Below the pieces are notes generated by a model. The model was not told the origin of the DNA. It made no database searches and saw only the letters and a list, made by a program, of their open reading frames with translations. Source: Candidatus Marinacidobacterium sp. (GTDB lineage Bacteria > Acidobacteriota > Vicinamibacteria > Marinacidobacterales > Marinacidobacteraceae). Taken from it: a stretch of DNA of 64,000 bases. Positions 37,427-64,000 of the stretch are shown piece after piece. Where the stretch lies: contig OZ242011.1 of assembly GCA_965204755.1 (NCBI GenBank), positions 1,952,001-2,016,000 of the forward strand, written 5' to 3'. A program made the position numbers and the translations under genes. How positions within the stretch are numbered: position 1 is the first letter of the stretch; each line of letters starts with the position of its first letter.

Positions 37427-37479
37427 GGTGTCTCTCCTTCGGCGGCGCCGCCGGAAACGGGCGCCCCTCTGCGTCCGGC

Positions 37480-37553: not shown

Positions 37554-37630
37554 GTTTCACGGGAACCCGTGAGGATAGCAGGGTCGGGGTGGTCGCCCCC
37601 GGCCCTCGGCGCCCCCGGCCCCGCCCGCCG

Positions 37631-40365: not shown

Positions 40366-43300
40366 GTGAACCTCATCTCCGCCGGCGCGGAGGTGCGGCG
40401 GGTGCGGCGGCGGTTGGGGTTGACGCAGGAGCAATTCGCGGAGGCGTTGCGGGTGACGCCGCTCACGATCCATCGGTGGGAGACCGGGCAATCCCGGCCG
40501 CAGCGGGCGGCGCGGGAGAGGCTGCAGCGGTTCGAGGAGCAGGTGGCGGCCATGGAATCCGGGCGGGCCGCGGAGCCCATGGCCGGCCCCGCCGACCCGC
40601 CGGCGCTGGACTTCGCCGGGAACCCGCAGGCCGCGGCGACCGTGGCCGAGGCGCTGCGGCTGGCGCACGGGCACCAGTTCAACCCGGCGTTCGCCGCCGA
40701 GACCGCCCGCATAGACCCCCTCCCGCACCAGCGGATCGCCGTGTACGAGCGGATGCTCGCCCAGGACCCCCTCCGCTTCCTGCTCGCCGACGACGCCGGG
40801 GCCGGGAAGACGATCATGACCGGCCTCTACCTCCGGGAGATGCTGTCCCGGGGGCGGCTCGCCCGGGCGCTGGTCGTCCCGCCCGCCGGATTGGTCGGCA
40901 ACTGGGAGCGCGAACTCCGCGAACTCTTCCGCCTCCGCTTCCGCATCGTCTCCGGCGCGGACATCCGCGAGGGCGGCGCGTTCGACGGCCCCGGCAGCGA
41001 CCTCGTCATCGTCTCCCTGGACACCCTCGCCCGCGAAACCGCCTTCGAGGCGCTCCGCGCCGAAACCGTCCGCCCCTACGACCTCGTCGTCTTCGACGAG
41101 GCGCACAAACTGGCCGCCCGGGTCCACGCCGGCCGGGTCACCGCCACCCGCCGCTACCGGCTGGCCGAAGCGCTGGCCGGCGTCCGGTCCGCCTCCTCGA
41201 AGCGGGACTTCGCCGGCCTCCGCTGGCGCGCCCGGGGCCTGCTGCTGCTCACCGCGACGCCGCACATGGGCAAGGACGCGCCCTACCACTTCCTCTGGCG
41301 GCTCCTCGACCCCCACGCCTTCTCTACCGGCGAGGCCTGCCGCCGCGCCGGCGCCCCCCTCCGCAACCGCCACTTCATCCGCCGCACGAAGGAGGAGATG
41401 GTCACCCTCACCGGCGAGCCGCTCTACCGCCCCCGCCGCTGCAACACCGTCTCCTACGGCCTGACCGACGGCCCCGATGGCGAAAAGGCCCTCTACCGGC
41501 TCACCACCGACTACCTCCAAACGACCTACGGCCGCGCCCTCTCCAACCGCCCCGCAGCGCAGTTGGCGATGGGCGTCTTCCAGCGGCGACTGGCCAGTTC
41601 CACCTGGGCCGTCCTCCGCTCCTTCGAGCGCCGGATCCGGAAACTCCGCGAAGCCGCCGCCGACCTGGAATCGGGGCGGACGGACGCGCGGGCGCTCCGC
41701 GCCGCCCAGCGGCAGTTGGACGCCCGCCACGGCGAGGACTGGTTCGAGACCCGCACCGCCGACGAGGACGCCGGCCCGGACGGCGCCGACGAGGGCCGCG
41801 ACAACTACGAGGACGCCGTGCTCGGCGCCTTCGTCGAACTCACCGTGGAGGGCCTGCAGAAGGAGATCGCGACCCTTCGAGACCTCCGCGACCGCGCCCG
41901 CCGACTGTTGGACGCCGGCGACGAGTCCAAGTTCGACCGCCTGCGCGAGGTGCTCGAAGCCCCGGACGAGGAAGACGACGAGCCCGGCGCGGGCAAGTGG
42001 CTCCTCTTCAGCGAGCACCGGGACACCGCCGACTACCTGGTGCGCCGCTTGGAGGGACTCGGCTTCGTCGGCGGGGTGGCGCTGATCCACGGCGGCCTCA
42101 CCTGGCGCGAGCGCGAGGAGCAGGTCGCGCACTTCCGCGACCCGCAGGGCGCCCGCTACCTGGTCGCCACCGACGCCGCCGGGGAGGGCATCAACCTCCA
42201 GTTCTGCTCGCGGATGGCCAACTACGACATCCCCTGGAACCCGGCGCGGCTGGAGCAGCGGATGGGCCGCATCCACCGCTACGGCCAGCGGCGCGAAGTG
42301 CGCATCGCCAACCTGGTCGCCGGCGACACCTACGAAGGCCGCGTCCTGGAAGTCCTGCTCGAGAAGTTGGACGCGATCCGCGACGAACTCTCCAGCGACA
42401 AGGTGTTCGATGTCATCGGCCGCCTGTTCGAGGGCCGGCCGCTCGGCGAAGTGATGCTCGGCGGCCTCGCCGGCGACCGCGACGCGGAGGCCGCCGAGCG
42501 TCTGCTCGCCGGGCGGTTGACCGCCGAACGCGTGGCCGAAGTCACCGAGGAGCAGCAGCGGATCTACGGCAACCCCGGGGAAGTCGCCGAGCGGCTCCCG
42601 GAACTCCGGGCCGACCTCGACCGCGAGCGCTACCTCGAACTGCTGCCGGCGTATGTGCGGCGGTTCGTGGAACAGGCGGCCCCGCTGCTCGACCTGGAAG
42701 TCCGCGGCGATCCGGACGGTTTCTTCACGCTGGCGTCCGCCCGGCCCGGCGCACTCGACCCGCTGCTCCCCGCGCTGGAAACCCACCCGCCGATCGCGCG
42801 CTCCCGCCTCTCTGCGCGCCGCCCGCCGGCGGAACCGGGCGAGCCCGGCGTCTGGCTCCACCCCGGCGAACCGGTCTTCGACACGCTCGCCGACGAGGTC
42901 GGACGGCGCCACCGGCGCGACGCCCGGCGCGGCGCGATCTTCGTGGACGCCCGGGCGGAGGAGCCGTACTTCCTCCACCTGGCGCTGGTCACCGTCGAAC
43001 GCCTGCGGGAGCCGGTCGAGGTCGAGGGGCATCCCGGCCTCTTCGAAGCGCGGCCCGACACCGAACCGGAAGTCCTCGAGCGCCGCCTCCTCGGCATCCG
43101 CCATGCCGCCGGCGCCGCCCCGACCACGGAGCCCGTCGAGCGGCTGATGCTCCTGCGCCCGGCGCCGGAAATCGCCCCCGGCGGCGTCCCGCTGGCCGCC
43201 CGCGGCGTCGCGATGCGGGCGGAGTCCGCGGCGCTCGCGGAGCGCGCGCGGGACGACCTCGTGGAGGAGCGCCGGAACGCGGCGCGGCGCGAACTGCCGG

Positions 43301-43968
43301 AGCGCCGCCGCCGGCTGGCGGTCGGCTTCGACCTGAAAGCCGCCGAACTCGCCGCCCGCCGCGCCGAACTCGCCTCCGGCAAGCGCGCCCCGGAGGACGG
43401 GGAGCGGGAGGAAGTCCGCAACGAACAGCGCCTCCTCGCCCGGGAAAAACGCCGAGCCCTGGCCCGCCTCGAAGCCGAACCGAGCCGGATCGTCCCCGGC
43501 GGCGCCCCGCTGCTCCTCCACGCGCTGGTCGTCCCCTCGGACGACGAGGAGGAGAAGCAGCAATACGACGCGACCGTGGAGGAGATCGCCGTGCGCCACG
43601 CCGTCGAGTGGGAGCGGCGGCGCGGCCGGGAAGTGAGCGATGTTTCCAAACCGGCTCTCGCCCGCGCCCGGGGGCTTTCCGACTGGCCGGGCTTCGACCT
43701 CCTCTCCCGCGGCCCGGACGGCGAGGAGATCTGCATCGAGGTCAAGGGCCGCGCCGGCCGGGGCTCGATCCACTTCCAGGGCAACGAGTGGAAGCAGGCC
43801 ATGAACCGGGAGGACACCTACTGGCTCTACGCCGTCCTCGACTGCGCCACCCCGACTCCGCGCCTCCAGCGAATCCGGAACCCGTTCCGCCAGTTCCTGG
43901 TCCGCGAACAGGTCTCGCTCGCCTATACGATTCCGGCATCGAAACTGATCGAGTGCGCAGAGAAGTGA
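40366..43968 (+). CDS. XRE-HTH + SNF2-family helicase + DUF3883 nuclease fusion
   Basis: N-terminal LGLTQEQFAEAL..TIHRWETG, LLADDAGAGKT, DEAH, TATPH, TDAAGEGINLQ, WNPARLEQRMGRIHRYGQ, C-terminal GFDLLS..IEVKG. Confidence 0.88.
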   Translation: MNLISAGAEVRRVRRRLGLTQEQFAEALRVTPLTIHRWETGQSRPQRAARERLQRFEEQVAAMESGRAAEPMAGPADPPALDFAGNPQAAATVAEALRLAHGHQFNPAFAAETARIDPLPHQRIAVYERMLAQDPLRFLLADDAGAGKTIMTGLYLREMLSRGRLARALVVPPAGLVGNWERELRELFRLRFRIVSGADIREGGAFDGPGSDLVIVSLDTLARETAFEALRAETVRPYDLVVFDEAHKLAARVHAGRVTATRRYRLAEALAGVRSASSKRDFAGLRWRARGLLLLTATPHMGKDAPYHFLWRLLDPHAFSTGEACRRAGAPLRNRHFIRRTKEEMVTLTGEPLYRPRRCNTVSYGLTDGPDGEKALYRLTTDYLQTTYGRALSNRPAAQLAMGVFQRRLASSTWAVLRSFERRIRKLREAAADLESGRTDARALRAAQRQLDARHGEDWFETRTADEDAGPDGADEGRDNYEDAVLGAFVELTVEGLQKEIATLRDLRDRARRLLDAGDESKFDRLREVLEAPDEEDDEPGAGKWLLFSEHRDTADYLVRRLEGLGFVGGVALIHGGLTWREREEQVAHFRDPQGARYLVATDAAGEGINLQFCSRMANYDIPWNPARLEQRMGRIHRYGQRREVRIANLVAGDTYEGRVLEVLLEKLDAIRDELSSDKVFDVIGRLFEGRPLGEVMLGGLAGDRDAEAAERLLAGRLTAERVAEVTEEQQRIYGNPGEVAERLPELRADLDRERYLELLPAYVRRFVEQAAPLLDLEVRGDPDGFFTLASARPGALDPLLPALETHPPIARSRLSARRPPAEPGEPGVWLHPGEPVFDTLADEVGRRHRRDARRGAIFVDARAEEPYFLHLALVTVERLREPVEVEGHPGLFEARPDTEPEVLERRLLGIRHAAGAAPTTEPVERLMLLRPAPEIAPGGVPLAARGVAMRAESAALAERARDDLVEERRNAARRELPERRRRLAVGFDLKAAELAARRAELASGKRAPEDGEREEVRNEQRLLAREKRRALARLEAEPSRIVPGGAPLLLHALVVPSDDEEEKQQYDATVEEIAVRHAVEWERRRGREVSDVSKPALARARGLSDWPGFDLLSRGPDGEEICIEVKGRAGRGSIHFQGNEWKQAMNREDTYWLYAVLDCATPTPRLQRIRNPFRQFLVREQVSLAYTIPASKLIECAEK

Positions 43969-43982
43969 AGGAGGCTGACCCC

Positions 43983-45107
43983 GTGTCCCGGACGCCGGAC
44001 GAACTGGACCCGCCGGCGCCGGCCCTTCCCGCCCACCCGGAGTCCGCCGAAACCCTCGTCGAAGACCCGGATGCGGCGACCGAGGCCGCGGACGAGAACG
44101 GCGAGTCCGTCCGTTACCTGATCTCGAGTTACGGCTCGGACATGCCGGTGGACGCCCTCGTCCGCCGCTTCCAGCGCGAGGACATCTTCATTCCTCCGTT
44201 CCAGCGGAAGTTCGTCTGGAGGCGGAACCAAGCCTCCCGATTCGTCGAGTCGCTCCTGCTCGGCCTCCCGGTCCCCGGCATCTTCCTGTTCCGGGAGCCG
44301 GACACGCGCAAGTTGATGGTCGTGGACGGCCAGCAACGCATCGTCACGCTCTCGTCCTTCTACGGCGGCGTGCTCGGCGATCGCAAATTCACGCTGTCCC
44401 AAGTGAGTCCCGAGTTCCGGGGAAAGGCGTACGCCGACCTGGAGGACGACGACCGCCGCGCGCTCGACGACGCGATCGTCCACGCCACGATCTTCCACCA
44501 GGACGAACCCACGGACGACCGGGGATCGGTCTATTCCGTCTTCGAACGACTGAACACCGGCGGAAGCGTGCTCCAACCGCAGGAGATCCGCTCCTGTGTG
44601 TACCGGGGACCCCTGATCGACCTCTTGGGTGAGTTGGCGAAAGACGACGACTGGCGTTCCCTGTGGGGCCGCCCGAGCGACCGGAAGAAGGACGAAGAGG
44701 TCATTCTCCGGTTCCTCGCCCTCCACAACGACCTCGACGCCTACCAGCCACCCCTGAAGCGATTCCTGAACGAGTTCACCCGAACGCATCGGCAGTGGAA
44801 CGCCGCTGCCGGCCCCGCTTTCGAGAAGCAGTTCCGCGAGAGCGTTCGCGTCATCGCCGCCTCACTCGGCCCTCGCGCGTTCCGGCCGGAGCGCGCCGTC
44901 AACACGGCCGTCGCCGACGCCGTGTTGTGCGGCGTGGCGCACCGACTATCCCTCGACGGGGCGCCCGATTCGTCGGCGTGGGCGCCGGCGTGGGAACGGT
45001 TGAAGGCGGGATTGAAATCGGACGACCTCGTCTCCGGCGGCACCGCGCACCTGGACCGCGTCCGAAGGCGCATCCTCCTTGCGCGTGACGCGTTCGCCCG
45101 AGTCTGA
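43983..45107 (+). CDS. DUF262 (ParB-like/GmrS-type) domain protein
   Basis: SD AAGGAGG then GTG. PPFQRKFVW, VDGQQR, FERLNTGG all intact. Confidence 0.88.
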   Translation: MSRTPDELDPPAPALPAHPESAETLVEDPDAATEAADENGESVRYLISSYGSDMPVDALVRRFQREDIFIPPFQRKFVWRRNQASRFVESLLLGLPVPGIFLFREPDTRKLMVVDGQQRIVTLSSFYGGVLGDRKFTLSQVSPEFRGKAYADLEDDDRRALDDAIVHATIFHQDEPTDDRGSVYSVFERLNTGGSVLQPQEIRSCVYRGPLIDLLGELAKDDDWRSLWGRPSDRKKDEEVILRFLALHNDLDAYQPPLKRFLNEFTRTHRQWNAAAGPAFEKQFRESVRVIAASLGPRAFRPERAVNTAVADAVLCGVAHRLSLDGAPDSSAWAPAWERLKAGLKSDDLVSGGTAHLDRVRRRILLARDAFARV

Positions 45108-45562
45108 TGCATCGGCCGCAGACGCAGAGCCTCGAGAACGCGTTCGCCGCCGCCGAGAGCGCGTGCGCCGACCTCTACGACGAGGACGAGGGGCGCGTGG
45201 CGCTGTTGATGACCATCTGGGCGTCGGGGTATCTCGAGGTGACCTGTCGAGAGACACTCCTCCACTACGCGAGGGAGCGCTCGGCGCCCGCTGTCGCGCG
45301 GTATGTGCGGAGCCAGTTGCACTGGTTCCAGAATCCGAACATGGAGCGGATCGCCGAACTGATCGGCCGGTTCGACAAGGACAAGGCGGCGGAACTGCGC
45401 GATTGGGCGGAGGGCCCGGTCGCGGAGAGCGTGAACAGCATCCGGGGGCTCCGCAACCAGGTCGCCCATGGGCAACTGCCGGATGTGAGCGTCGCTTGGA
45501 TCGTCGGACACTTCCGCAACGCCCGCCTCCTTTCGAACCGCCTGGCGAGGCTGATGGCGTGA
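45107..45562 (+). CDS. HEPN domain protein (RiboL-PSP/MAE_28990-like)
   Basis: SGYLE, FQNP, RNQVAHG RxxxxH motif. Coupled to DUF262. Confidence 0.8.
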   Translation: MHRPQTQSLENAFAAAESACADLYDEDEGRVALLMTIWASGYLEVTCRETLLHYARERSAPAVARYVRSQLHWFQNPNMERIAELIGRFDKDKAAELRDWAEGPVAESVNSIRGLRNQVAHGQLPDVSVAWIVGHFRNARLLSNRLARLMA

Positions 45563-45761
45563 TGCGGCGCCCCGGCTTCGTCCCGCTACGATTCCGCTGT
45601 CTTCGCGATTCCGTTCTCGGAACCGGTCGAGAAGGCCGGGAGGGACTGATGGTGGGTCTGACACCGGGGCGAACCGTGCGCGGGGCGCTCCTTGCTTCGC
45701 GTCGTTGCGGCGGCGCGCGTTCGGCGTTCGGCGGCCCGCCGACTCGGGCGGAGGATCCCCG

Positions 45762-46046
45762 ATGAAGATTCGGGAGGCTGTCCGGTGCGCCAAGGCCCGC
45801 GTCGCCGACCTGTTCGAGGACGAGGGCATCACCGCGCTCGCCCTCGAGGAGATCGAGTGCCAACCCGACGAGGGCGTCTGGACGCTGACCATCGGTTTCT
45901 TCCGCCCGTGGCACAAGGGCGCGGAGGAGCGGAACTTCCTCGGCGAACCGCGGCTGTCGCGTTGCTTCAAGGTCGTTCGGCTCGCCGACGCGACCGGCGA
46001 AGTGCTCTCCGTCCGGAATTGGGCCCAAGCGGAGGCGGCGCGATGA
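45762..46046 (+). CDS. Small protein, paralog of the PIN partner at 50030
   Basis: LEEIE...VWTLTIGFFRPWHKG.EERN.LGEPRLSR.FKVVRL. Confidence 0.7.
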   Translation: MKIREAVRCAKARVADLFEDEGITALALEEIECQPDEGVWTLTIGFFRPWHKGAEERNFLGEPRLSRCFKVVRLADATGEVLSVRNWAQAEAAR

Positions 46047-48202
46047 GCGCTCCGGTGGCCGAGGCCGTCCGGGACCGGGCGGCGGAGCGGTCGGAGCGCT
46101 ATTCGGAGCACCGCACGGTCGAAGAGTTCGCGAGGCAACTCGACAGCGGCGAACTCATCGCGCCCAACCTGCGGCGGCGGCCCTGGTCGTTGCGGCGGGC
46201 TTCCCGGTTCATCGAGTCGTTGATCAACGGCCTTCCGGTCGGGGAAGTCTTCCTGTTCCCGGATACGGAGACCGACCGCCGGGTAGTCCTCGACGGGAAC
46301 CGGCGGCTCGCCGTCCTCGCTTCGTTCTACCGGGGCTGGTTCGGCGGAGAGGGATTCGCGCTGACCGGGGTGGACCCGGAGATCGAGGGCAAGACCCGCC
46401 GGACGCTGCGCTATCCCTACGGCGGCCGGCTCGACGAGGCGGTGATCCCGACCACGGTCCTGGCGCCCGGTTCCGACGAGGGTCGGTCGGCCCTCCGAGA
46501 AGTCGTCGAGCGCCTGCACAGCGACGACGCGCCGATGCGGCCGCAGGAAATCCGGACTTGCCTCCACCGGGGGGCATTCAACGACCTGCTGGGCCGATTG
46601 GTCGAGGACGCCGGGTGGAGACGCCTCTACGGCGATGCGGGCGACCGCCGGGACGAAGAAGAGGCCGCCCTCCGGTTCCTGGCGCTCCACAACGCGCTCG
46701 ACCGGTACCGCGGCGCGATGAGGGACTTCCTCGACGCCTTCATGGGCCGCCACCGCCGGTGGTCGGCCACCGACGACCCGCCGTTCGTGCAGCAGTTCCG
46801 GGGCGCGGTCGGACTCCTCGCCGGCGCGTCGGCCCGGGTGGCGGCCGGCGCCGGAGACGGCTCGGAGCGCGCCCCGGACCCCCGAATCCTCGACGCCCTT
46901 CTCTGCGGCGCGGCCCACCGCCTGGAAACCGGGCCGCCCCCCGACGACGACGCCGTCCTCCGGGCGCGGAAGCGGCTCACCCTTCGGTTGGAAGCCGAGG
47001 GTCTCGCTTCCCCCGACGCCCCGGACGAAGATTCCGCGCGGCGGCGGATCGAACTCGCCCGCGAAGCGTTCGGCGCGGCGCAGGACTCGGCGCCGCTTCC
47101 CCCGCCGGAACCCCGCGAAACCGGGCGACGGGCCGGCCGCCCGCCGCCGAAACCCGCGCCTCCGCCGTCCCCGCCGGCGGAAGCGAGCGCGACGACCGCA
47201 CCGAAAGACGACGGGGACGAAATCCTGACCGTCGAGACCGACATCCTCCAATACTCCGGAAGCCCCTCGATTCCCGACCTGCTTCGGGAAGTGGAGAGCG
47301 GAGACCTCGTCATCCCGAAGTCCCGGCGGACGCTCCGGTGGTCGCGCGAGCGGGCGTCCCGCTGGATCGAATCCCTGCTTCTCGACCTCCCGGTCCCCGG
47401 GGTCGTCCTGTTCGCTGAGCGGGAACGAGGCCGGTCGGTCGTCGTGGACGGATGCCAGCGGCTCCTTTCGATCCTCTGCTTCTACCGGGGCGAGATCGGT
47501 GACGAGGAATTCACGCTTCGCGGCGTGGGCGGCGACCTCGAGGGCCGGCCCTACTCCGGGCTGACCTATGCGCGCCAACGGGCGCTCGACGACGCGGTGG
47601 CGCCCCGGTCGGTCTTCCGCCAACTCGACGACGGATGCGACGCCGACTCCATCCATGCGGCCTTCGAACATCTCAGCCGACTGCGCGCGCAGGAAATCCG
47701 CTCCTGCCTCTTCCCCGGCCCGCTCGACGACCTGCTGTCCGAACTGGCGGAGGATCCGTGTTGGCGCCGCCTCCGGGGCGCTCCCGGAGAGGGGCTGCAG
47801 GACGAGGAGGACATCCTTCGTTTCCTGGCGCTCCACAACGAGCCCGAAACCCGCGGCCGCTCCATGAAGCGGTTCCTGAACGCGTTCATGGAGGGAAACC
47901 GCAACACAATCACCGCTGCCGCGCCGTTCGCCTCCCAGTTTCGCGGCGCGGCGCGCGCCACCTGCCGGGAGATCGGCCCGGAGGCGCTCCGGCCGGACGG
48001 GGTGTTCGACGAGTCCTTCGCCGACGCCGTCCTGTGCGGCGTCGCGCACCGCCTGGAGAACGGTTCGGGCGCCGACGCGCCTCCGCTCAAAGCCGGTTAC
48101 CGACGGCTCCTAGAACGGATGTGCGAGACGGAACCCGGCGGAAAGCGCCCCGCGAACGGCGAGCGCATCGCCCTGGCGCGGGAGGCGTTCGCAGCGTCGT
48201 GA
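46043..48202 (+). CDS. Tandem double DUF262-like protein with degenerate motifs
   Basis: Two copies of the 43983 protein joined by a Pro-rich linker. LDGNRR and VDGCQR replace DGQQR. Confidence 0.75.
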   Translation: MSAPVAEAVRDRAAERSERYSEHRTVEEFARQLDSGELIAPNLRRRPWSLRRASRFIESLINGLPVGEVFLFPDTETDRRVVLDGNRRLAVLASFYRGWFGGEGFALTGVDPEIEGKTRRTLRYPYGGRLDEAVIPTTVLAPGSDEGRSALREVVERLHSDDAPMRPQEIRTCLHRGAFNDLLGRLVEDAGWRRLYGDAGDRRDEEEAALRFLALHNALDRYRGAMRDFLDAFMGRHRRWSATDDPPFVQQFRGAVGLLAGASARVAAGAGDGSERAPDPRILDALLCGAAHRLETGPPPDDDAVLRARKRLTLRLEAEGLASPDAPDEDSARRRIELAREAFGAAQDSAPLPPPEPRETGRRAGRPPPKPAPPPSPPAEASATTAPKDDGDEILTVETDILQYSGSPSIPDLLREVESGDLVIPKSRRTLRWSRERASRWIESLLLDLPVPGVVLFAERERGRSVVVDGCQRLLSILCFYRGEIGDEEFTLRGVGGDLEGRPYSGLTYARQRALDDAVAPRSVFRQLDDGCDADSIHAAFEHLSRLRAQEIRSCLFPGPLDDLLSELAEDPCWRRLRGAPGEGLQDEEDILRFLALHNEPETRGRSMKRFLNAFMEGNRNTITAAAPFASQFRGAARATCREIGPEALRPDGVFDESFADAVLCGVAHRLENGSGADAPPLKAGYRRLLERMCETEPGGKRPANGERIALAREAFAAS

Positions 48203-50775: not shown

Positions 50776-50927
50776 GCTGACCGCCATGCCGCAGATCGGG
50801 CCGGGGCATTCAGGCCCGACGCGGAGCCCGTCTGTCCTTTCGGGCGGCATGTGGAAGCGGTGAGCACGAGGATGCGGCGTCGTCGGGCGCGAACTTCGAT
50901 CCGCCTCGAGATCGGGGGGAAGACATC

Positions 50928-56091: not shown

Positions 56092-56206
56092 TGACACGGC
56101 CGGTGGCCGGGAGGGGACGCTCCGTTCTCGCACGGCGCCGACCCCGCGCCGCTCCCCCCGCGCGGGGGGAAGATTCCCGACCGGTCACCGTTCCGGGGCC
56201 CGTATC

Positions 56207-57472
56207 GTGATCCGCCGCCTCCAAGTCCTGAACTATCGGGGCATCCGCTACCTGGATCTTCGGTTGGCCCCGTTCCAGGTCCTCGTCGGTCGGAATGCGA
56301 GCGGGAAGAGCACGGTGCTGGACGCGATCGCGTTCCTGCGCGACTTGGTTGCCTCCGGGCTCGACCTGGCGGTCGAGAGGCGGACGCGCAACTTCCAGGA
56401 CCTGGTGTGGGGCCGGCCGACCGAGGACCTCGGCTTCGAACTCGCCGTGGAGTGCGGTCTCGCGGGATTCGCTCCGGAAGCGCCGCCGGCCCCCGAAGAC
56501 GACCGGGTGTTCCGCTACGAGGTCGCCGTCCGCGAAGAGGAGCGGGCGCCGCGGATTACGGCGGAGCGCGGGTTGCTCGGGCGCTTGGGAGCGCCCGGCT
56601 TCGGGAAGCGGCGCGCGCGGTTTCCGGACCCGCCGCCCGCGCCGGAGACGATTTTCGTGGATGCGCGGACCGGGGAGTACCGGCAGGTGCTCTCGCGGAC
56701 CGACGCCGGCGCGCTCCGCTTCGAGCCGGAGACGGCGCAGTTGGTGAGTGAACCGCGGGAGTCCCCGTATTCCTTCGGCCCGGGACGGCCGGCTCTCGCC
56801 CACCTCCCGGACGCGCCGGACGACTTCCCGGCGGCGCTTCGAGTCCGCCGGCTGCTGACGGAGGTCCGCAGCCTGTTCGTGGATTGCGCGGCCCTTCGCC
56901 GACCCAGCCCGTATTCCCGGGACACGAAGTCGCTCTCCTCCGACGGCGGCAACCTTCCCTGGGTCGTTCGGCGTCTTTGCTCCGAGGACGAAGAGCGGTT
57001 CGAGCACTGGCTGGAGAACTTGCGCTTCTCGCTGCCCGAGGTCGAAGGGGTGCGGGTCGTCGTGCGGGAAGAGGATCGGTGCGCCTACCTGATGGTTCGC
57101 TACGCGGCCGGCCACGAAGTTCCCTCGTGGTCGGTATCCGACGGCACGCTCCGCCTGATGGCGCAGACGCTGCCGCTCCATGCGCGCGCCCCGGAGACGA
57201 TCCACCTGATCGAGGAACCGGAAGCCGGCGTGCATCCGGAGGTGATGCAGGATGTGCTCGATGCGCTGCAGCCGGCGGGCGACCGCCAGGTGCTCGCGGT
57301 TACGCAGTCCCCGGCGATCCTGGCGGATGCCGACGCGAAGACGGTCCTCTGCCTGGCCAAGGACGAGCGCGGCCTGCTCGATGCGATTCCGGCGCTTTCG
57401 CATCCGCGCATGGATGGTTGGATCGGCGCCCCGCACCTGGGCAACCTCTTCGCCGGAGGACTGCTCGGATGA
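56207..57472 (+). CDS. ABC-type ATPase, MAD3-like, copy 2 (no partner gene follows)
   Basis: Close paralog of 54173, same length (421 aa). GRNASGKST, VTQSP. Confidence 0.8.
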   Translation: MIRRLQVLNYRGIRYLDLRLAPFQVLVGRNASGKSTVLDAIAFLRDLVASGLDLAVERRTRNFQDLVWGRPTEDLGFELAVECGLAGFAPEAPPAPEDDRVFRYEVAVREEERAPRITAERGLLGRLGAPGFGKRRARFPDPPPAPETIFVDARTGEYRQVLSRTDAGALRFEPETAQLVSEPRESPYSFGPGRPALAHLPDAPDDFPAALRVRRLLTEVRSLFVDCAALRRPSPYSRDTKSLSSDGGNLPWVVRRLCSEDEERFEHWLENLRFSLPEVEGVRVVVREEDRCAYLMVRYAAGHEVPSWSVSDGTLRLMAQTLPLHARAPETIHLIEEPEAGVHPEVMQDVLDALQPAGDRQVLAVTQSPAILADADAKTVLCLAKDERGLLDAIPALSHPRMDGWIGAPHLGNLFAGGLLG

Positions 57473-57581
57473 GAGATTCCGGGTCCTTGCCGCCATCTGG
57501 TGCGGAGGGGAGATCCGGCGTCGTGTGCGCCGCGTATCTCCTCGCCGGGACTCGCCTGGGTCCGCCTGCCGCAGTCGCCTC

Positions 57582-58083
57582 ATGATCCGCCGTCTCCAAG
57601 CCCGGAACTACCGCTGCCTCCGGTATGTGGATCTCCGCTTGGACCGCTTCCAGGTCCTTGTCGGCCCGAACGCCAGCGGCAAGAGCACCGTGCTCGATGC
57701 GGTGGGTTTCTTGGGCGATCTGGTCGCTTCCGGGGTCGAGGCGGCGGTGGAACGGCGCTCGCCGGACTTCCGGGACCTCGTTTGGGCCCGCCCGGAAAGA
57801 GGTGACGGCATCGGCTTCGAACTCGCCGTGGAGTGCGGCCTCTCGGCGCGCGACCCGGAAACGCCGTCGGCCCCCGGAGACGACCGGGTATTCCGCTACG
57901 AGGCCGCCCGATCCCAGGAAGGCAGCCGAACGCGTGCTGGAACGAAACCACCGGCCGATCACGGCTCGCTTCTATCGAGAGTTGGCGAAGACGGCGGACT
58001 TCCGGGACTGCACGGATCCCGCGTTCTGCGCCCTGCGCGACACTCTCCGGGACTGGTATCCCGCGGCGCCGGAACCGCCCTGA
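57582..58083 (+). pseudogene. Deleted ATPase/TOPRIM pair (copy 3)
   Basis: ATPase N-terminus (MIRRLQARNYR...VFRYE) joined out of frame at ~57903 to a TOPRIM C-terminus (PPDPRKAAE...CTDPAFCALRDTLRDWYP*). Confidence 0.8.
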
Positions 58084-58426
58084 GTCTCGGTGCGGAGCTC
58101 TTCGGTGAGCGAACGGGGGATCGGACTCGCGGTGAGGTGTGATCTCACCGAGCAGGACCGCGAGGCGCTCTCGAAACTAAGGACGATCCGGTGCGCGGTG
58201 GAACGGCAACCACGCTCCCGAGCGCTGCCGAGACGCCGGCCATCGGCAGCGACCGGTGCGCACCGAGCGCATCCCTCGGCCGGCATCGGACTCCGCCGGC
58301 CGATATAGACTTCCGTCGCGGTGCTGGCAGTCACCGATATCGGTGCGCCGCCGTCGAGACTTCGCGCCGTTCCCGGCGATGCCGGGGTCGTAGCCATTCC
58401 GAGCGAGACACTCCCGCACTCAGACG

Positions 58427-59908
58427 ATGACACCCGACGCCGCCTGCCGCGTCTCCGTCCGCGACTTCGGCCCCGTCTCCTCCGCCGCGTTCGACCTGCG
58501 TCCGCTCACCGTCCTGGTAGGGCCCAGCAATACCGGCAAGTCGTATCTCGCTACCTTGGTGTATGCGTTCCTCCAGTGCTTCGGCCCCGCCGGTCGGAAT
58601 CGATCCGCCGTCGCGTTCGATCTACGCGACGACTTCGATGCCATGCCCGACGGAATACCGTCGTCCGCGATCTCCGAATTCTCCCAGTGGGTCATTCGGG
58701 TCCAGGAGACGCGCGCCCCGTCGCCGCTGCCGGCGAGCATATCCGCTCGTCTTCATGCCTTCGTGAAGAACGGCAAAGGACTTCCCGAAGAGTTCACCCG
58801 CCGGTTGCCGCGCTACTACGGAAAACACGATCTGCGCCGCCACCGCGCGAACCACGCGACACTCGAAGTCGAGTGTGTCACTCCGGACAACAATTCAATC
58901 GGTTACCGGTTCGATTTGCTCCGGGACGATCCGAAAGTCACCGGCCGGATCAGCGACGCTCTCCTGAGTCCGCCCACCGTGGTCGACGAACTGGCGCGGC
59001 GGGCCTACGCGCACGCCAACCTGCCTTCTCCCGCCGACGAATCGGACGGCCGGAAGCACCTCAGATGGCTGACTCTGCGCATTTTCGAGGACGCGGTCGC
59101 CCCGCTGCGGCGACCGGTCTATTACCTTCCCGCCAGTCGCACCGGACTTCTGCATAGCCACCTGGGTGTCGTGACCAGCCTCATCGAGAACGCCGCCGAT
59201 CCCACGGCCCTGCCTTCAACCGAACCGAACTTGTTGTCGGTCGTTTCGGCAGACTTCCTGAACAGGATGCTCCGGGCGCGCTCCTTCGATGGAGGTGTGC
59301 GGCCGCCAGAGTTGTTGGACTCGGCCGAGCGCCTGGAGACGGAACTTCTCGGCGGTCGCGTGGATGTCGGACGCGATGAAATCGGCGCTTCGCGTTTCAC
59401 CTATCGACCGACTACCTGGAAGAAGGCCATGCCCTTGGCCTCGGCCTCCTCCATGGTCTCCGAACTCGCGCCCGTCGTGATTTTCCAGCGATACATCCTT
59501 CGACCCGGTGATCTGATCGTTATCGAAGAGCCCGAGGCCCACTTGCACCCGGCGACCCAGGCGGCCTTCGTCCGGTGCCTCGCCCGAGTCGTCCGCGCCG
59601 GCGTTCGCGTGCTGCTCACCACGCACTCGGAGTGGGTGATGGAGGCCGTCGGGAACCTGGTGAGCGCCTCGCGGCTGCCCGAAGAGGCGAGAGGGAGGAT
59701 CGCCGGCAGCGACACGACACTGGCGCCGGAGGAAGTCGGCGTGTGGCTGTTTCGGGAAGCCGAGGGGTCCGGGGGCTCCACCGTGGAGGAGATCACGATC
59801 GATCCCGAAGTCGGTCTCTATCCCGCCGGGTACGACCGGACGGCAGACACCCTCTACAACAACAGCGTCCGCATCTCCAACGAGTTGCGGCGGCTCGCGG
59901 GATCGTGA
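58427..59908 (+). CDS. ABC-type (AAA_15/AAA_21) ATPase, unrelated lineage
   Basis: GPSNTGKS, LPASRTG, SSMVSELAP, IEEPEAHLHP, LTTHS. Lower GC. Confidence 0.82.
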   Translation: MTPDAACRVSVRDFGPVSSAAFDLRPLTVLVGPSNTGKSYLATLVYAFLQCFGPAGRNRSAVAFDLRDDFDAMPDGIPSSAISEFSQWVIRVQETRAPSPLPASISARLHAFVKNGKGLPEEFTRRLPRYYGKHDLRRHRANHATLEVECVTPDNNSIGYRFDLLRDDPKVTGRISDALLSPPTVVDELARRAYAHANLPSPADESDGRKHLRWLTLRIFEDAVAPLRRPVYYLPASRTGLLHSHLGVVTSLIENAADPTALPSTEPNLLSVVSADFLNRMLRARSFDGGVRPPELLDSAERLETELLGGRVDVGRDEIGASRFTYRPTTWKKAMPLASASSMVSELAPVVIFQRYILRPGDLIVIEEPEAHLHPATQAAFVRCLARVVRAGVRVLLTTHSEWVMEAVGNLVSASRLPEEARGRIAGSDTTLAPEEVGVWLFREAEGSGGSTVEEITIDPEVGLYPAGYDRTADTLYNNSVRISNELRRLAGS

Positions 59909-60099
59909 GCGGCCTCGTGGCCTCCGTGCGCGCCGCGGTGGCGCCGGAAGCGGTCGATAGCCGGATCGACCGGGACGGCTGCCGCAGCGACCTCCTGCGC
60001 CGCGCGATCCGCCTGCGCAACGAGATCCGCCAGCCGCTCCTGTTCCAGTGCGGCGACTCCCTGGAGCCGCTCTTCTCCGACCAGAACCCCGCGGCGTAG
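59905..60099 (+). pseudogene. Probable internally deleted partner of the 58427 ATPase
   Basis: GTG overlaps the ATPase stop. Only 64 codons. Confidence 0.35.
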
Positions 60100-60285
60100 A
60101 GCCGCTCGGGAGACCGGGTTTCTGGACGAAACGACTTGCCCCTCACGGCCCGCTCCCGTCGAGACTCGGCGCGAACGACAGACCGCCGGGATCGCCGGGA
60201 CGCAGAATTCCGCACACGCCGCGACCTGCTGAGTGGTATCCCCGCGCGCCGGCGCTAATCTGCGTTCGCCCGCCGCAGTCGCCTC

Positions 60286-61551
60286 ATGATCCGCCGTCTC
60301 CAAGCCCGGAACTACCGCTGCCTCCGGTATGTGGATCTTCGGTTGGACCGCTTCCAGGTCCTCGTCGGGCCGAACGCCAGCGGCAAGAGCACCGTGCTCG
60401 ATGCGGTGCGCTTCCTGGGCGATCTGGTTACTTCCGGGGTCGAGGCGGCGACGGAACGGCGCTCGCCGGACTTCCGGGACCTGGTGTGGGCCCGCCCGGA
60501 AGGCGGTGACGGCCTCGGCTTCGAACTCGCCGCCGAATTCGATCTCTCCGACGAAGACCCCGCCGCGCCCGAGGCGCCGCCCGATGACCGGGTGTTCCGC
60601 TACGAAGTCGCGGTCCGACAGGAAGACGGGGCGCCGCGCATCGCCCGGGAGCGCGGTCTCCTGGGTCGGCTCGGCGTCGGGGCTTTCCGACAGCGGCGTC
60701 AACGGTTCCCCGACCCGCAAGCCCCGCCGGAGACGATCTTCGTGAACGAAAACACTGCCGGCTACCGGCAGGTGTTGACGAAGTCCGGCGCGGGGCAGTC
60801 GCGCATCGAGCCGGAGTCGCGGGACCGGGTTGCGGAGGCGTGGGCGCCCGCCTGCGCCGTCGGCGGAGGCCGCTCCGCCCTCTCCGATCTACCGGGAGGG
60901 CCGGACGAGTTTCCCGCGGCGACTCGGAGCCGGCGGCTGCTGACCGAGACCCGACGACTCTTCCTCGACAGCGCCGCGCTTCGCCGACCTTCGCCTCCCG
61001 CGCCGCCGGGCGCCCTCTCCCCGGACGGATCCAACCTCGCTTGGCTCGTCCGGGAACTCCGGGCCGAGGACGAGCGGCGCTTCGCCGGATGGCTGCGGCA
61101 GGTGCGCTGCGCGCTGCCCGATGTCGTGGATGTTCGCGTGGTCGTCTCGGACGACGACCGCGCCCATCTGATGATCCGCTACGACACCGGTTTCGAGATT
61201 CCTTCGTGGGCGGTGTCCGAAGGAACGCTGCGCTTCCTGGCGCTGAGCCTCGTCCTTTTCCTTCCTGCGCCGGAGGTCATCTACCTGATCGAAGAACCGG
61301 AGGACGGCGTGTATCCACTGCTGATGCAGGATGTGGGAGAGGCGCTGTCGCCCGTGCATGGGCCGCAGGTTCTCGTGGCCACGCATTCTCCGGCGATGCT
61401 CACGGAAATGGAACCCAAGAACCTTCTATGTCTCGCGAAGGACGCGAACGGCGCGCCCGATGTCATCCCGGCAACCGCGCACCCCGATCTCGGTGACTGG
61501 GACGGGGTTCCCCGTGTCAGCGCACTGTTCGCTGCGGGAGCCCTGGAGTGA
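60286..61551 (+). CDS. ABC-type ATPase, MAD3-like, copy 4
   Basis: 421 aa. GPNASGKST, VSEGTLR, IEEPEDGVYP, ATHSP. Confidence 0.82.
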   Translation: MIRRLQARNYRCLRYVDLRLDRFQVLVGPNASGKSTVLDAVRFLGDLVTSGVEAATERRSPDFRDLVWARPEGGDGLGFELAAEFDLSDEDPAAPEAPPDDRVFRYEVAVRQEDGAPRIARERGLLGRLGVGAFRQRRQRFPDPQAPPETIFVNENTAGYRQVLTKSGAGQSRIEPESRDRVAEAWAPACAVGGGRSALSDLPGGPDEFPAATRSRRLLTETRRLFLDSAALRRPSPPAPPGALSPDGSNLAWLVRELRAEDERRFAGWLRQVRCALPDVVDVRVVVSDDDRAHLMIRYDTGFEIPSWAVSEGTLRFLALSLVLFLPAPEVIYLIEEPEDGVYPLLMQDVGEALSPVHGPQVLVATHSPAMLTEMEPKNLLCLAKDANGAPDVIPATAHPDLGDWDGVPRVSALFAAGALE

Positions 61552-62189
61552 CGGGTACCGACACGCGTCCGCGCCTCTTGGTGTTGACGGCCGATCGGCA
61601 CTCGACCGTGTCCGTCCGCACGCTCCTCGACACCCGGCGGAGGGCCTTGGGCATTCGACGCCTGGAGTTCCGGATACTCCGGCATCCCGAGTCCGACCCG
61701 GGTTGCCGGAAGCACGCCGTGGAGGAAGTGCGGCCTTACCTCCGCCGATTCGATCGGCTCGTCGTCGTGTTCGATCATGCCGGCTGCGGCAGCGCCGACC
61801 CGCCGGAACAAATCGAACGAACTCTGGAAGACGTCCTTGCCCGGAACGGCTGGAGGGATCGCGTGAAGGTCATCGTGGTCGCGCCCGAACTCGAAGCGTG
61901 GATCTGGGGGAGATCGGAGGCCGTGGCGCGAGTGCTCGGTTGGGAGGGCGGATTCGCCGCGCTCAGGACTTGGCTCGCCGAGCAGGGCCTTTGGCCTCCG
62001 GGAGACCCCAAGCCTCCCGACCCGAAACGAGCCGCCGAGCGGGTTCTCGGCCGGCGCGGAACGAGACTTACGGCCGACTTGTTCCGGGAATTGGCGTCAC
62101 GGGCGAGTTTCCGCGACTGCCGGGACCCCGCGTTCTGCGCGCTGCGCGACACTCTGCGGGAGTGGTATCCCGCGGGAGACGAACCATGA
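61548..62189 (+). CDS. TOPRIM-like partner (MAD4/DUF4276-like) of ATPase copy 4
   Basis: HPESDPGC, VVFDHAGCG, PELEAWIW, KPPDPK, CRDPAF. Confidence 0.72.
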   Translation: MTGTDTRPRLLVLTADRHSTVSVRTLLDTRRRALGIRRLEFRILRHPESDPGCRKHAVEEVRPYLRRFDRLVVVFDHAGCGSADPPEQIERTLEDVLARNGWRDRVKVIVVAPELEAWIWGRSEAVARVLGWEGGFAALRTWLAEQGLWPPGDPKPPDPKRAAERVLGRRGTRLTADLFRELASRASFRDCRDPAFCALRDTLREWYPAGDEP

Positions 62190-64000
62190 CCAAGAAGAAC
62201 CGGCCGACGCCGTGGCGCGAACTGGTGCATCTCAAGGAGGAACTGCGCTCCGGGGAACTCGCGCTGGCGGAATTCGCGGCCGACCTCCACGATGTGGTGA
62301 CCGCTTCGGGAAAGCGCCGCCTCTACGAGGACCCGGCGGAATTCTTCGCGCTCACCTACCTCACCCACCCGCTGCGGGAACTCGCGAAGGATGTCGCGCT
62401 CCGGCTCGCCGGGAAGAGCGACAAGGCGGTCCGGCAGTTGGAGTTGACCTACGGCGGCGGGAAGACCCACACGCTGATCACGCTCTACCACCTCTTCGGC
62501 TCCCCCCGCGAACTCCCCGACCTGCCGGCGGTGCGGGAATTCCGCGAGCACCTCGGCGAAACCCCGCCGCGCGCGTTCGCCGCCGCACTCTGCTTCGACA
62601 AGATCGACGCCGAGAAGGGGATCGACGGCGCGCGCGCCCCCGACGGCGCCGAGCGCTCGCTGAAGCACCCGTGGAGCGTCCTCGCCTACCAACTCGCCGG
62701 CGACGACGGACTGCGGGCGATCCACGCCGACGGCAAGCCCGAAGAACGCGAAACCCCGCCGGCGGAACCGCTGCTGGCGAAACTCCTGGAATCTCCGCGC
62801 GAACGCGGTATCCCTTCGACGCTGGTGCTGGTGGACGAGGTCCTGATGTACGCCGGCGAGAAGGCCGAACTCGATCCGGTCTGGGAATCGCGGCTCACCA
62901 ACTTCTTCCAGCACCTCTCGCAGGCGGTCGGCCGGGTGGACACCGCGGCGCTCGTCGTCTCGCTGCTGTCGAGCGATCCCACGAAGGCGCAGGGAGACGC
63001 CGCCGAAGGAGTGATTCGCGCCATCTCCGGCATCCTCCGGAGGACGCGGGACGAAGGCGTGGAGCCGGTCGGGAAGGAGGATGTGCCGGAGATCCTGCGC
63101 CGCCGCTTCTTCCCGCCGGACGACTTCCGCGACCTCGACGCCCACCGTCCGCAGGCCATCGCGGTGGCGCGGAACCTCACCGCGCTCGAATCCGATACCA
63201 AGAAGACCCGTCAGGCCACCGAAACCCGCCTGCTCGACAACTTCCCCTTCCACCCCGACCTCACCGATGTCTTCTACGGCAGGTGGACGCAACTCTCCGG
63301 CTTCCAGCGCACGCGCGGCATCCTTCGCGTGCTCGCTTCCGCCATGCGGCAAGCGGAGGAATGGGACAACGCGCCGCTGATCGGCCCGTCCGCGTTCCTC
63401 TCCGCTCCGGGCGCCTCGGGCCTCTCCGAATCCGTGCGGGAACTCGCGGACATCGCGACCAAGGAACCGGGGGACCGCTCGTCCGACTGGGCCGCGCTCC
63501 TCGCCACCGAGTTGGAGAAGGCGCGGCAGGCGCAGGACGAAACTCCGGCGCTGCTCGAAGGGCGCGAAATCGAACAGGCGGTGCTCGCCGTCTTCTTCCA
63601 CTCGCAGCCCGCCGGCCGGAAGGCCGGGACGCCGGACCTGCTGCGCCTCATCGGGAGCGGCGGCGCGAACCGGATCGAGTTGGAGAAAGGACTCCGGCGG
63701 TGGCGGCAACTGTCGTGGTTCCTCGACGACGAGGACACCGGACTCGCCGCCGCTTCGGACGAGATTCCCCGGTCCTGGCGGCTCGGCAACCGCCCGAACC
63801 TGCGGCAGATGCACGACGAGGCGGTGCGGCGGATCAGCGGCGATTCCGTGCGGGCGCGGCTGCTCGAGGGAATCAAGAAGGCGAAGAAGGCGCTGACCGA
63901 GGGCGCGCAGGGTGCGGGCGCCGTCGTCCACCTGCTCCCGCCCGCGCCGAAGGATGTCGCCGACGACGGCAAGTTCCGGTTCGTGGTGCTCCCGCCGGAG
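62186..64000 (+). CDS. DUF499 AAA+ ATPase, 3' end off window
   Basis: ATGA overlap. PWRELVHLKEEL..EFAADLHDV..YEDPAEFFALTY..YGGGKTH..LVDEV..FPFHP..FQRTRGILR. Not in the ORF track (no stop in window). Confidence 0.88.
   Translation, partial: MTKKNRPTPWRELVHLKEELRSGELALAEFAADLHDVVTASGKRRLYEDPAEFFALTYLTHPLRELAKDVALRLAGKSDKAVRQLELTYGGGKTHTLITLYHLFGSPRELPDLPAVREFREHLGETPPRAFAAALCFDKIDAEKGIDGARAPDGAERSLKHPWSVLAYQLAGDDGLRAIHADGKPEERETPPAEPLLAKLLESPRERGIPSTLVLVDEVLMYAGEKAELDPVWESRLTNFFQHLSQAVGRVDTAALVVSLLSSDPTKAQGDAAEGVIRAISGILRRTRDEGVEPVGKEDVPEILRRRFFPPDDFRDLDAHRPQAIAVARNLTALESDTKKTRQATETRLLDNFPFHPDLTDVFYGRWTQLSGFQRTRGILRVLASAMRQAEEWDNAPLIGPSAFLSAPGASGLSESVRELADIATKEPGDRSSDWAALLATELEKARQAQDETPALLEGREIEQAVLAVFFHSQPAGRKAGTPDLLRLIGSGGANRIELEKGLRRWRQLSWFLDDEDTGLAAASDEIPRSWRLGNRPNLRQMHDEAVRRISGDSVRARLLEGIKKAKKALTEGAQGAGAVVHLLPPAPKDVADDGKFRFVVLPPE

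Follow-up and report, generated by a model that had tools for sequence, protein, structure and literature searches.

Hma core genes and the cassettes between them

We analysed a 64,000-nt stretch of DNA (the window), positions 1952001-2016000 of the contig of a 'Candidatus Marinacidobacterium sp.' genome that was assembled as a single contig of 3.98 Mb with a GC content of ~70%. The subject of the analysis was a block of 19 co-directional open reading frames (ORFs) at its downstream end, in which the three genes of the antiphage system Hma are separated by two sets of inserted genes (Table 1). Since a genome of such GC content contains many spurious ORFs, the genes were called by third-position GC (GC3), frame plots and start-codon context. 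Overlaps of 4 nt (ATGA/GTGA) or 1 nt (TGATG) were found at 12 of the 18 junctions, and the remaining six were gaps of 109-284 nt. The region between HmaA and HmaB (gap 1, 6,963 nt) held eight ORFs, arranged as D262a+HEPNsm1, smB, D262bc+HEPNsm2, Schlafen and smC+PIN, and the region between HmaB and HmaC (gap 2, 8,013 nt) held another eight, arranged as ATP1+par1, ATP2, the ATP3 remnant, ATP4+sm4 and ATP5+par5. A paralog within the locus was detected for 12 of these 16 embedded ORFs; the singletons were Schlafen, PIN, the PD-T4-4-like ATPase (ATP4) and the 64-aa ORF (sm4). We consider it likely that the locus is an Hma system with 16 guests, the repeated cassettes of which stem from duplication within the lineage and a slow process of birth and death.

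An earlier note on this DNA had described a co-directional array of more than 23 kb with frequent overlaps, a BREX-related SNF2-DUF3883, DUF1156 and DUF499 core, and inserts that are mostly paralogs of each other. The gene calls, the PADLOC profiles for HmaA, HmaB and HmaC and the paralog count agreed with this description. The composition that it gave for the first block was likewise recovered with Pfam, PADLOC and the PIN fold model, except that the Schlafen gene starts at 48678 and not at 48255. The second block was recovered as well, with four related ATPase(-Toprim) units and a distantly related fifth ABC ATPase (unrelated in the words of the note). The MAD4, HEPN, Schlafen+HATPase and PIN assignments fit its view that the inserts belong to families of predicted abortive-infection-type effectors.

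Table 1. Features of the Hma locus, in positions of the window
Feature	Position	Strand	Evidence and remarks
Co-directional block	40366 to 65485	+	19 ORFs; ends 1485 nt beyond the window (HmaC tail)
HmaA, 1200 aa: XRE-type helix-turn-helix, SNF2 helicase, C-terminal NOV_C/DUF3883 PD-(D/E)xK nuclease	40366..43968	+	Pfam, PADLOC
D262a, ParB-like DUF262/GmrSD_N protein, 380 aa	43965..45107	+	Pfam GmrSD_N 2.9e-26; PADLOC NsnA 5e-57, PD-T4-2_A 3e-49
HEPNsm1, small HEPN protein, 151 aa	45107..45562	+	weak Pfam HEPN_RiboL-PSP, E 0.004; RNQVAH motif
smB, orphan copy of PIN-preceding small protein	45762..46046	+	ATG 45762; earlier TTG 45705; ATGA overlap with D262bc
D262bc, two DUF262 units fused via Pro-rich linker, 719 aa	46043..48202	+	two GmrSD_N stretches
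HEPNsm2, small RiboL-PSP-type HEPN protein, 160 aa	48199..48681	+	Pfam HEPN_RiboL-PSP 1e-08, above cut-off; RNEVAH motif
Schlafen AlbA_2 + HATPase_c_4 protein, ~451 aa	48678..50033	+	Pfam SLFN_AlbA_2 3.5e-07, HATPase_c_4 4e-10
smC, first gene of cassette, unnamed family, 95 aa	50030..50317	+	930 cluster representatives (E<=1e-3)
PIN-fold nuclease (predicted), 153 aa	50314..50775	+	AlphaFold2 (AF2) pLDDT 90.8; Foldseek PDB
HmaB, DUF1156 N6-adenine DNA methyltransferase, 1082 aa	50928..54176	+	Pfam DUF1156 4.1e-17; PADLOC HmaB 8.5e-112
ATP1, MAD3/HEC-01A-type OLD-family ABC ATPase, 421 aa	54173..55438	+	NCBIfam MADS3 341 bits; PADLOC HEC-01A 3.8e-39
par1, MAD4 Toprim-like partner, 217 aa	55438..56091	+	NCBIfam antiphage_MADS4 169.8 bits (cut-off 160); PADLOC mad4 2e-10
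ATP2, MAD3-type ATPase, no MAD4 behind, 421 aa	56207..57472	+	77% aa identity to ATP1; Walker A intact; 96% ortholog P0012
ATP3 remnant, 186 codons	57582..58142	+	first ~113 codons ATP5-like, joined to MAD4 C-terminal fragment 57901-58077
ATP4, PD-T4-4_A-like ABC ATPase, 493 aa	58427..59908	+	PADLOC PD-T4-4_A 9.5e-33
sm4, 64-aa ORF, gene status uncertain	59905..60099	+	GTGA overlap with ATP4 stop
ATP5, MAD3-type ATPase, 421 aa	60286..61551	+	PADLOC HEC-01A 2.3e-47, mad3 6e-23, full length
par5, MAD4 Toprim-like partner, 213 aa	61548..62189	+	NCBIfam antiphage_MADS4 200.8 bits (cut-off 160)
HmaC, DUF499-type AAA+ ATPase, 1099 aa	62186..65485 (window ends 64000)	+	PADLOC HmaC 1.5e-58, DUF499 5.8e-14

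The three core genes showed the features by which Hma is recognized: the fusion of SNF2 with a DUF3883/NOV_C nuclease, the DUF1156 methyltransferase and the DUF499 AAA+ ATPase. HmaA matched HTH_31, SNF2-rel_dom, Helicase_C and NOV_C (3.4e-13) in Pfam and, over aa 81-1176, the PADLOC HmaA profile (E 8.2e-151), and it contains DEAH at aa 244 and D..EVK at aa 1106-1127. HmaB contains the motifs DPFAGGG (aa 125) and DPPY (aa 641) and scored only 183 bits with NCBIfam DUF1156_antiphage, the cut-off of which is 1000. The assignment of HmaC, which has a Walker A motif GGGKT at aa 90 and a Walker B motif LVLVDE at aa 213, rests on the PADLOC profiles, because the Pfam DUF499 model gave no match at E<=0.1 and NCBIfam DUF499_antiphage scored 72 bits, far below its cut-off of 1200. 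By these sequence features the core is the restriction-modification-like system called Hma by Payne et al. (2021/2024; bioRxiv 10.1101/2024.01.29.577857) and Type-1 DUF499-centred BREX-related in a later paper (NAR 2026, PMC12839542). It agrees with the published system in its three genes, in their order and in their shared strand. It differs in that HmaA carries an N-terminal XRE-type helix-turn-helix and HmaC has no N-terminal HEPN. In such a system HmaB would methylate adenines of the host DNA, HmaC, the DUF499 AAA+ ATPase, would act as scaffold and scanner, and HmaA would attack unmodified DNA by means of its SNF2 motor and the PD-(D/E)xK nuclease joined to it. HmaA of Halomonas is described in PMC11232893 as protecting against T4 through its nuclease domain. 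The helix-turn-helix of the HmaA found here (aa 5-55, window 40366-40530; HTH_31 2.9e-08) lies outside the PADLOC match. It was covered by the match to the congeneric metagenome-assembled genome (MAG) G007, which began at residue 1 (tblastn) or 5, and matches to other members of the family began at residues 7-9. This domain is a possible autoregulator.

The DUF262 proteins of gap 1 are each followed by a small HEPN protein. D262a, for which a 94% ortholog was found (P0121), has the motif DGQQR at aa 121, and the corresponding motifs of D262bc are degenerate (DGNRR and DGCQR). The counterparts of the two D262bc units are separate genes in G007, and the fusion was retained in contigs of the sequencing runs X5 and X6. 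HEPNsm1 and HEPNsm2 are 38% identical; the start of HEPNsm2 overlaps D262bc (GTGA), and the GTG start of the Schlafen gene overlaps the HEPNsm2 stop. A DUF262 gene followed by a small HEPN gene with an Rx4H motif is the arrangement of the ParB(DUF262)+RiboL-PSP HEPN operons, which were tabulated as early as 2013 (Anantharaman et al., PMC3710099 Table 1), and of PD-T4-2_A/NsnA in PADLOC. One of the two pairs differs from those operons by its fused double DUF262 protein with degenerate DGQQR motifs. Such pairs recurred outside Hma loci in two other genomes (G030 and G268), where HEPN homologs lie behind DUF262 genes. Identity of the DUF262 proteins with GmrSD, BrxU, HEC-05 or HEC-06 was ruled out: they have no DUF1524/HNH, their only Pfam match was GmrSD_N, and the PADLOC HEC-05/06 matches span just 50-60 N-terminal residues. 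In the X5 contigs D262bc carries two in-frame 12-nt deletions, at 46863 (~aa 273, C-terminal part of the b unit) and at 47121 (~aa 359, start of the Pro-rich linker). Tandem DUF262 genes with 47% mutual identity were also seen in a Longimicrobiales MAG (G028, L024:7912-10205), so that such tandems are not confined to one phylum; behind those genes no HEPN gene was found at E<=1e-4, and the 18-kb region gave no HmaA, HmaB or HmaC match.

The second kind of pair in gap 1 consists of smC and the PIN protein. Of 13 PIN-family loci in 12 other Acidobacteriota genomes, 12 have a member of the smC family immediately before the PIN-family gene, which makes smC+PIN a conserved cassette of two genes and leaves smB as an orphan first gene. 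The two small proteins are 63% identical (dN/dS, the ratio of non-synonymous to synonymous divergence, 0.40), and each is 40-47% identical to the single copy of G007. Members of the family are typically ~93 aa long. The AF2 model of smC (pLDDT 88.8) consists of a helix plus a curved sheet, for which the PDB gave no match at E<=1e-3 and only weak NTF2/SnoaL-like rows; the nearest named protein-atlas cluster, Imm-NTF2-2 (score 0.80), is a lead only. The Pfam PIN model alone matched the 153-aa protein at E 0.037 only, and it was the structure model that confirmed the predicted PIN fold, its best PDB matches being PIN/VapC structures (for example 1v8o_F, E 8.7e-4; TM-score 0.55-0.66). Residues D11, E63 and D113 are invariant and D130 is conserved in at least 90% of the sequences; we take these four to be the catalytic acidic quartet.

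The repeated unit of gap 2 is an ATPase gene followed by a gene for a Toprim-like protein. The same ~420-aa ATPase followed by a ~215-aa Toprim-like protein constitutes the MAD3-MAD4 module (alias HEC-01) of the MADS system of Pseudomonas aeruginosa (NAR 2026, PMC13662399). The locus differs in having several diverged copies, one of them an ATPase without a partner, and in that ATP1, which has the Walker A motif GRNASGKS and aligns over aa 1-420 to positions 1-427 of 427 of NF047739, stays with its 341 bits under the 420-bit MAD3 cut-off. Both ATP1 and ATP2 are 57% identical to ATP5, and par1 is 55% identical to par5. MAD4 directly follows the ATPase in two of the four units, ATP2 is partnerless and the third unit retains a 59-aa MAD4 fragment only. 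The last 60 aa of ATP1 are 38-55% identical to those of the partnerless ATP2 with a ratio of non-synonymous to synonymous differences (pN/pS) of ~1, the sole stretch near neutrality. The ATP3 remnant, which belongs to the DNA repeat families D1 and D5, is 85% identical to ATP5 over aa 1-113, and its MAD4 fragment is 68% identical to par5 aa 155-213. ATP4 is just 27% identical to ATP5 over 243 aa and gave a weak partial match to NCBIfam MADS3 (E 2e-05). No Pfam or PADLOC match was found for sm4, and a tblastx comparison of sm4 and its spacer with the neighbourhood of the ATP4 paralog returned noise only. A PDB sequence search with par1 and ATP1 gave no matches. According to PMC13662399, MAD3-MAD4 is a DNase in which ATPase and Toprim subunits combine 2:2, MAD3 by itself shows no ATPase activity, and MAD6, MAD7 and MAD8 are mandatory in the authors' model of the eight-gene MADS. 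A full MADS was ruled out, as the 14 proteins of the locus scanned with NCBIfam gave MADS matches only to the MAD3 and MAD4 models (ATP1, par1 and par5 over the full length, ATP4 in part). The X5 contigs carry a 1-nt deletion at 55488, near the 5' end of par1, which either shifts the frame after ~17 codons or implies that the true start lies downstream.

Taken by family, the guests, which are largely coupled in translation, fall into five kinds of cassette that have been found within such systems before: a ParB-like NTPase with a RiboL-PSP HEPN RNase, a Schlafen-HATPase RNase, an unnamed small protein with a PIN RNase, the MAD3-MAD4 ATPase/Toprim DNase and a PD-T4-4-like ATPase. The biochemical functions given here for core and cassettes, like the backup role discussed below, are predictions from sequence.

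Origin of the repeated cassettes

G007, a MAG titled 'Candidatus Marinacidobacterium sp.', has an Hma locus orthologous to that of the window and adjoining the same TonB-receptor gene (85% aa). Identity to the core proteins of the window is 73% for HmaA, 64% for HmaB and 69% for HmaC, and the cassettes of the G007 locus belong to the same families in a different order and number. Gap 1 of G007 (12.8 kb) contains a small protein+PIN cassette, DUF262+HEPN, a Schlafen-DUF262 open frame, a further DUF262+HEPN, two tandem HEC-01A genes with a single HEC-01B and a second Schlafen gene; in gap 2 (4.6 kb) MAD3-MAD4 occurs twice, together with a C-terminal remnant of MAD4 that is G007's own. In the open frame (L006:5909-8920, 1004 codons) no stop separates the first Schlafen ORF from a D262a-type DUF262 unit, which reflects either a second fusion of cassettes or read-through.

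Phylogenetic trees were computed for the three families with repeated members. The ATPase tree comprised 60 rows, of which six came from the genome itself, two from G007 and one from another source, and 51 were taken from the 120 database matches listed. ATP1, ATP2, ATP5 and both G007 copies fell into a 45-row clade (support 100/100) that leaves out three other MAD3-like genes of the same genome. Within it ATP1 and ATP2 formed sister sub-clades (17 rows, 100/100); they have orthologs of 92% and 96% identity in other assemblies, and the paralogs overall each have their own at 92-96%. The G007 copies a and b were mutual sisters elsewhere in the clade, and one-to-one orthology of the tandem ATPase copies of the window and G007 was rejected by the approximately unbiased (AU) test for 4 of 4 pairings (p-AU <= 6e-5). 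The G007 duplication unit also spans the 100-nt leader (z 14.7), and the leaders of ATP3 and ATP5 showed a modest similarity (z 3.8). In the MAD4 tree par1, par5 and para and parb of G007 formed a clade (100/99), and a topology like that of the ATPases was not rejected (p 0.24). The DUF262 tree (39 rows) was inferred under the site-heterogeneous model LG+C20; the a-type units (11 rows including G007 u2), the b unit with G007 u3 and the c unit with G007 u1 formed a 15-row clade (100/98), the Gemmatimonadota homologs remained outside, and forcing D262b/c to the outgroup side cost 17.6 log-likelihood units (p-AU 0.0097).

Because the ATPase, MAD4 and DUF262 trees all place the copies of the locus in lineage-specific clades (98-100% support), the repeated cassettes appear to have arisen mostly by duplication within this lineage, a sponge/marine genus of Acidobacteriota, and not by repeated import. 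This is the origin that the earlier note had preferred, and the comparison of synteny was in accord with it, since the orthologous G007 locus has its own, independent tandem duplication. As to closer relatives in distant taxa, which the note had named as the result that would count the other way, the ATPase and MAD4 trees and the model-based DUF262 tree favoured descent within the lineage, whereas the raw identity of D262a did not. Among the database matches, a contig figure of 25444 nt is common to P0001, P0014 and P0039 and one of 129587 nt to four matches, which suggests arrays on single contigs elsewhere. A scan of JGI metagenomes with ATP1 found distant relatives only (36-52%) and none of the 85-92% homologs.

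Several observations weigh against duplication within the lineage. In the ATPase clade ATP5 is the sister of all remaining members (42 rows), which an early import of a related cassette would explain as well as an early duplication. The leader similarity of ATP1 and ATP2 was not significant (z 0.8), and sister tandem copies could also be produced by gene conversion instead of independent duplication. The weakest link of the argument is the 15-row DUF262 clade: the branches of D262b/c are very long (1.4-1.65 versus 0.017 for a) and their amino-acid composition is odd, the group for the AU test was picked after inspection of the tree, and by raw identity D262a is closer to homologs in two Longimicrobiales genomes of another phylum, Gemmatimonadota (53-54%), than to either half of D262bc (39-41%). 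Searches of both gaps for relic hmaA, hmaB or hmaC fragments (tblastn at E<=1, blastn) returned chance-level matches only. Across the clusters of 10 proteins looked up, a single organism name, Immundisolibacterales, was attached to the homologs, on one member. Finally, HEC-01 gave no protection in the sole published test in E. coli, reported in the preprint of Payne et al.

The most probable alternative is an insertion hotspot, in which the space between the hma genes is a permissive 'genomic sink' and every cassette, look-alikes included, was imported separately. Insertion into Hma gaps is documented (62.7% of 1,485 systems have embedded genes according to Payne et al., ~66.5% according to Liu et al., PMC11232893), DUF262+HEPN and smC+PIN cassettes are found outside Hma loci too, and 4 of the 16 inserts are singletons, all of which, with the raw identity of D262a, would suit import. 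So would a stretch 2-4 kb upstream of HmaA (36274-38350) with tRNA-Ser (tga), tRNA-Gln (ctg) and a phage-type DUF5131 gene, which may be the remains of an integration site. Separate imports are at odds, however, with the well-supported lineage-specific clades of three families and with the tandem pair of G007, which is alike even in its leader, and Pfam scans and a repeat search found no integrase, transposase or repeat-flanked cassette within the locus. We regard an origin of all the copies by import as unlikely.

Age of the copies and variation between strains

Synonymous divergence (dS) was 0.11 between the G007 copies a and b, 0.39 between ATP1 and ATP2, 0.69 between smB and smC, 0.85-0.88 between ATP1 or ATP2 and ATP5 and 1.06 between par1 and par5, and dN/dS lay between 0.37 and 0.44 in 7 of 7 paralog pairs tested. 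Judged by these values, the copies in the window are old and under purifying selection. The best DNA repeat in the locus was 85% identical over 300 nt, and near-identical repeats were absent. A dS of 0.39-1.06, a dN/dS of ~0.4 and the lack of near-identical repeats therefore point to slow birth and death and not to a rapid accordion. The proposal of the earlier note that effectors were amplified and diversified in place thus finds support as regards duplication and none as regards the accordion-like tempo (38-85% identity between copies, with the dS and dN/dS given above). Events of such a process that are visible in the loci are tandem duplication, fast divergence (D262b/c), fusion (D262bc), loss of a partner (ATP2, smB) and decay (ATP3 remnant).

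The stability of the locus was assessed with Logan contigs of four runs, which were compared with 43900-63899 at >=90% identity. Contigs of run X1 had 0 differences over 43900-51005, 54457-57597, 57872-60301 and 60379-63899, and the stretches that the listed pieces left uncovered were in HmaB and at the 5' ends of ATPase genes, which are repeats. As X1 probably represents the source sample, it gives no independent support. In a 9,178-nt contig of run X5, from another study, 57487-58382 was replaced by ~149 nt, and the ATP3 remnant is missing in that strain; a contig of run X6, from a third study, departs from the window sequence at 57486. Both runs kept the order of block 1, including the fused D262bc. 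Many joints with short sides (21-43 nt) were disregarded, since they probably come from cross-matching sequence of other organisms. The presence or absence of the ATP3 remnant is one real strain-level structural variant. The stretch was found in 19 runs, among which no RNA run was listed; their labels are sponge metagenome, marine metagenome or coded names of organisms.

A true gene accordion, that is, a rapid expansion and contraction of near-identical copies driven by selection in the manner of poxvirus host-range genes, would also produce tandem defence-gene paralogs the number of which varies between relatives. Copy number and order do differ between the congeners, an 896-nt segment is present or absent among close strains, and the a and b copies of G007 are young. 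The copies in the window, in contrast, are old, diverged and individually conserved, each with its own ortholog elsewhere, their order persists in the X5 and X6 contigs apart from the remnant, and the near-identical amplification typical of poxviruses is not seen; an accordion is largely refuted and very improbable. That the repeats are a strain chimera can hardly be entertained. In favour of it, the assembly is MAG-like, consists of one contig and is 89% complete, more than one strain maps to the region (several in all) and the depth over HmaB is 3-4x that of its neighbours. On the other side, the X1 contigs are interrupted only within repeats, the same junctions are bridged by contigs of X5 and X6, the paralogs (55-85% identical) are too diverged for strain variants and G007 has the same architecture. 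The contigs argue against the concern about the assembly raised in the earlier note.

Comparison with published Hma loci

The locus shows, in an unusually crowded form, an arrangement that has been published before, and neither the guests nor the idea of a backup is new. Embedded OLD-type ATPase/Toprim, GmrSD-like, HEPN, PIN and Schlafen-HATPase modules, co-oriented with the core, are described for Hma, BREX and BREX-related loci in the texts of Payne et al. (2024), PMC11232893 and PMC12839542, and the cassettes of the window (OLD-type ABC ATPase+Toprim, ParB/GmrSD-like, HEPN, PIN and Schlafen+HATPase) are of these published classes. Their role as backup against anti-restriction is proposed in the Discussion of Payne et al. 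(2024) and in PMC12839542. What sets the window apart from the published loci is the number of the inserts, 8+8 ORFs over 7.0 + 8.0 kb, and the mutual paralogy of most of them (12 of 16). The Hma survey of Payne et al. (2024) accepted up to three genes per gap and removed duplicate sequences, and loci like this one would thus be missed there or flattened. No text was found that discusses how embedded cassettes are amplified as tandem paralogs: the preprint text of Payne et al. refers to duplicate removal only and PMC12839542 to domain-level tandems only, none of the papers listed by a full-text search dealt with it in title or abstract, and the supplements may list multi-module loci.

In the family, nine complete A-B-C loci were found in 7 of the 28 genomes searched, with a gap 1 of 0.7-12.8 kb and a gap 2 of 0.07-8.0 kb. 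Heavy loading is therefore common there, and the window has the largest gap 2. We tentatively suggest, as an idea that we would not yet favour over its negation, that the Hma gaps may serve as a long-lived nursery for immune sensors, in which MAD3-MAD4 and ParB-HEPN cassettes duplicate in place, meet differing fates (retained function, fast divergence, fusion, loss of the partner or decay) and give rise to repertoires of each lineage's own, as in plant nucleotide-binding leucine-rich repeat (NLR) clusters, and in which the repertoire stays co-expressed and co-inherited through its operon linkage with the restriction core. If this were true, each lineage would build its own repertoire, which the coupling to the core would hold together. 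The locus of the window and its G007 ortholog form a natural pair for the study of how embedded cassettes multiply and diverge without integrases, and the partnerless ATP2 raises the biochemical question of whether a MAD3 ATPase that lacks a MAD4 of its own can make use of the nuclease of a paralog.

Surroundings of the locus and related loci in the genome

The block is preceded by serS, tRNA-Ser, a tetratricopeptide repeat (TPR) protein gene, tRNA-Gln, the DUF5131 gene and two unassigned minus-strand ORFs and followed by a TonB-dependent receptor gene. A scan of 44001-64000 returned 0 promoter-like and 10 terminator-like sites, a count not above that of shuffled sequences and uninformative at 70% GC.

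For its size of 4 Mb the genome contains a great many BREX-related systems. A second complete Hma locus lies at 3407679-3421579 (L008), with HmaA 49-51%, HmaB 53-59% and HmaC 50-51% identical; it holds a Gabija pair (GajA 7.9e-161, GajB 1.4e-194) between HmaA and HmaB, and its HmaB-HmaC gap is empty. An orphan HmaB paralog at 3088959-3092198 (L009) is 82% identical to the HmaB of the window, versus 64-67% for the congeneric ortholog. Its identity is 80-98% along the protein except for aa 173-226 (62%) and aa 516-633 (57-59%), stretches that may form the target-recognition part. Behind this paralog lie the genes of a 1089-aa protein without a PADLOC match and of two ABC ATPases, one of them HEC-01A (1.7e-125), and neither HmaA nor HmaC adjoins it. 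Three more MAD3-MAD4-like pairs, 39-42% identical to ATP1 and two of them in tandem, lie at 2310787-2314738 and 2343294-2345194, on either side of a region (2324728-2337366) that encodes a helicase, a DUF1156 methylase and a protein distantly similar to HmaC. A further cluster on the minus strand, at 2133927-2151214, contains an HmaA-like (34.5%) and an HmaC-like (30%) gene together with two DUF1156 methylase genes.

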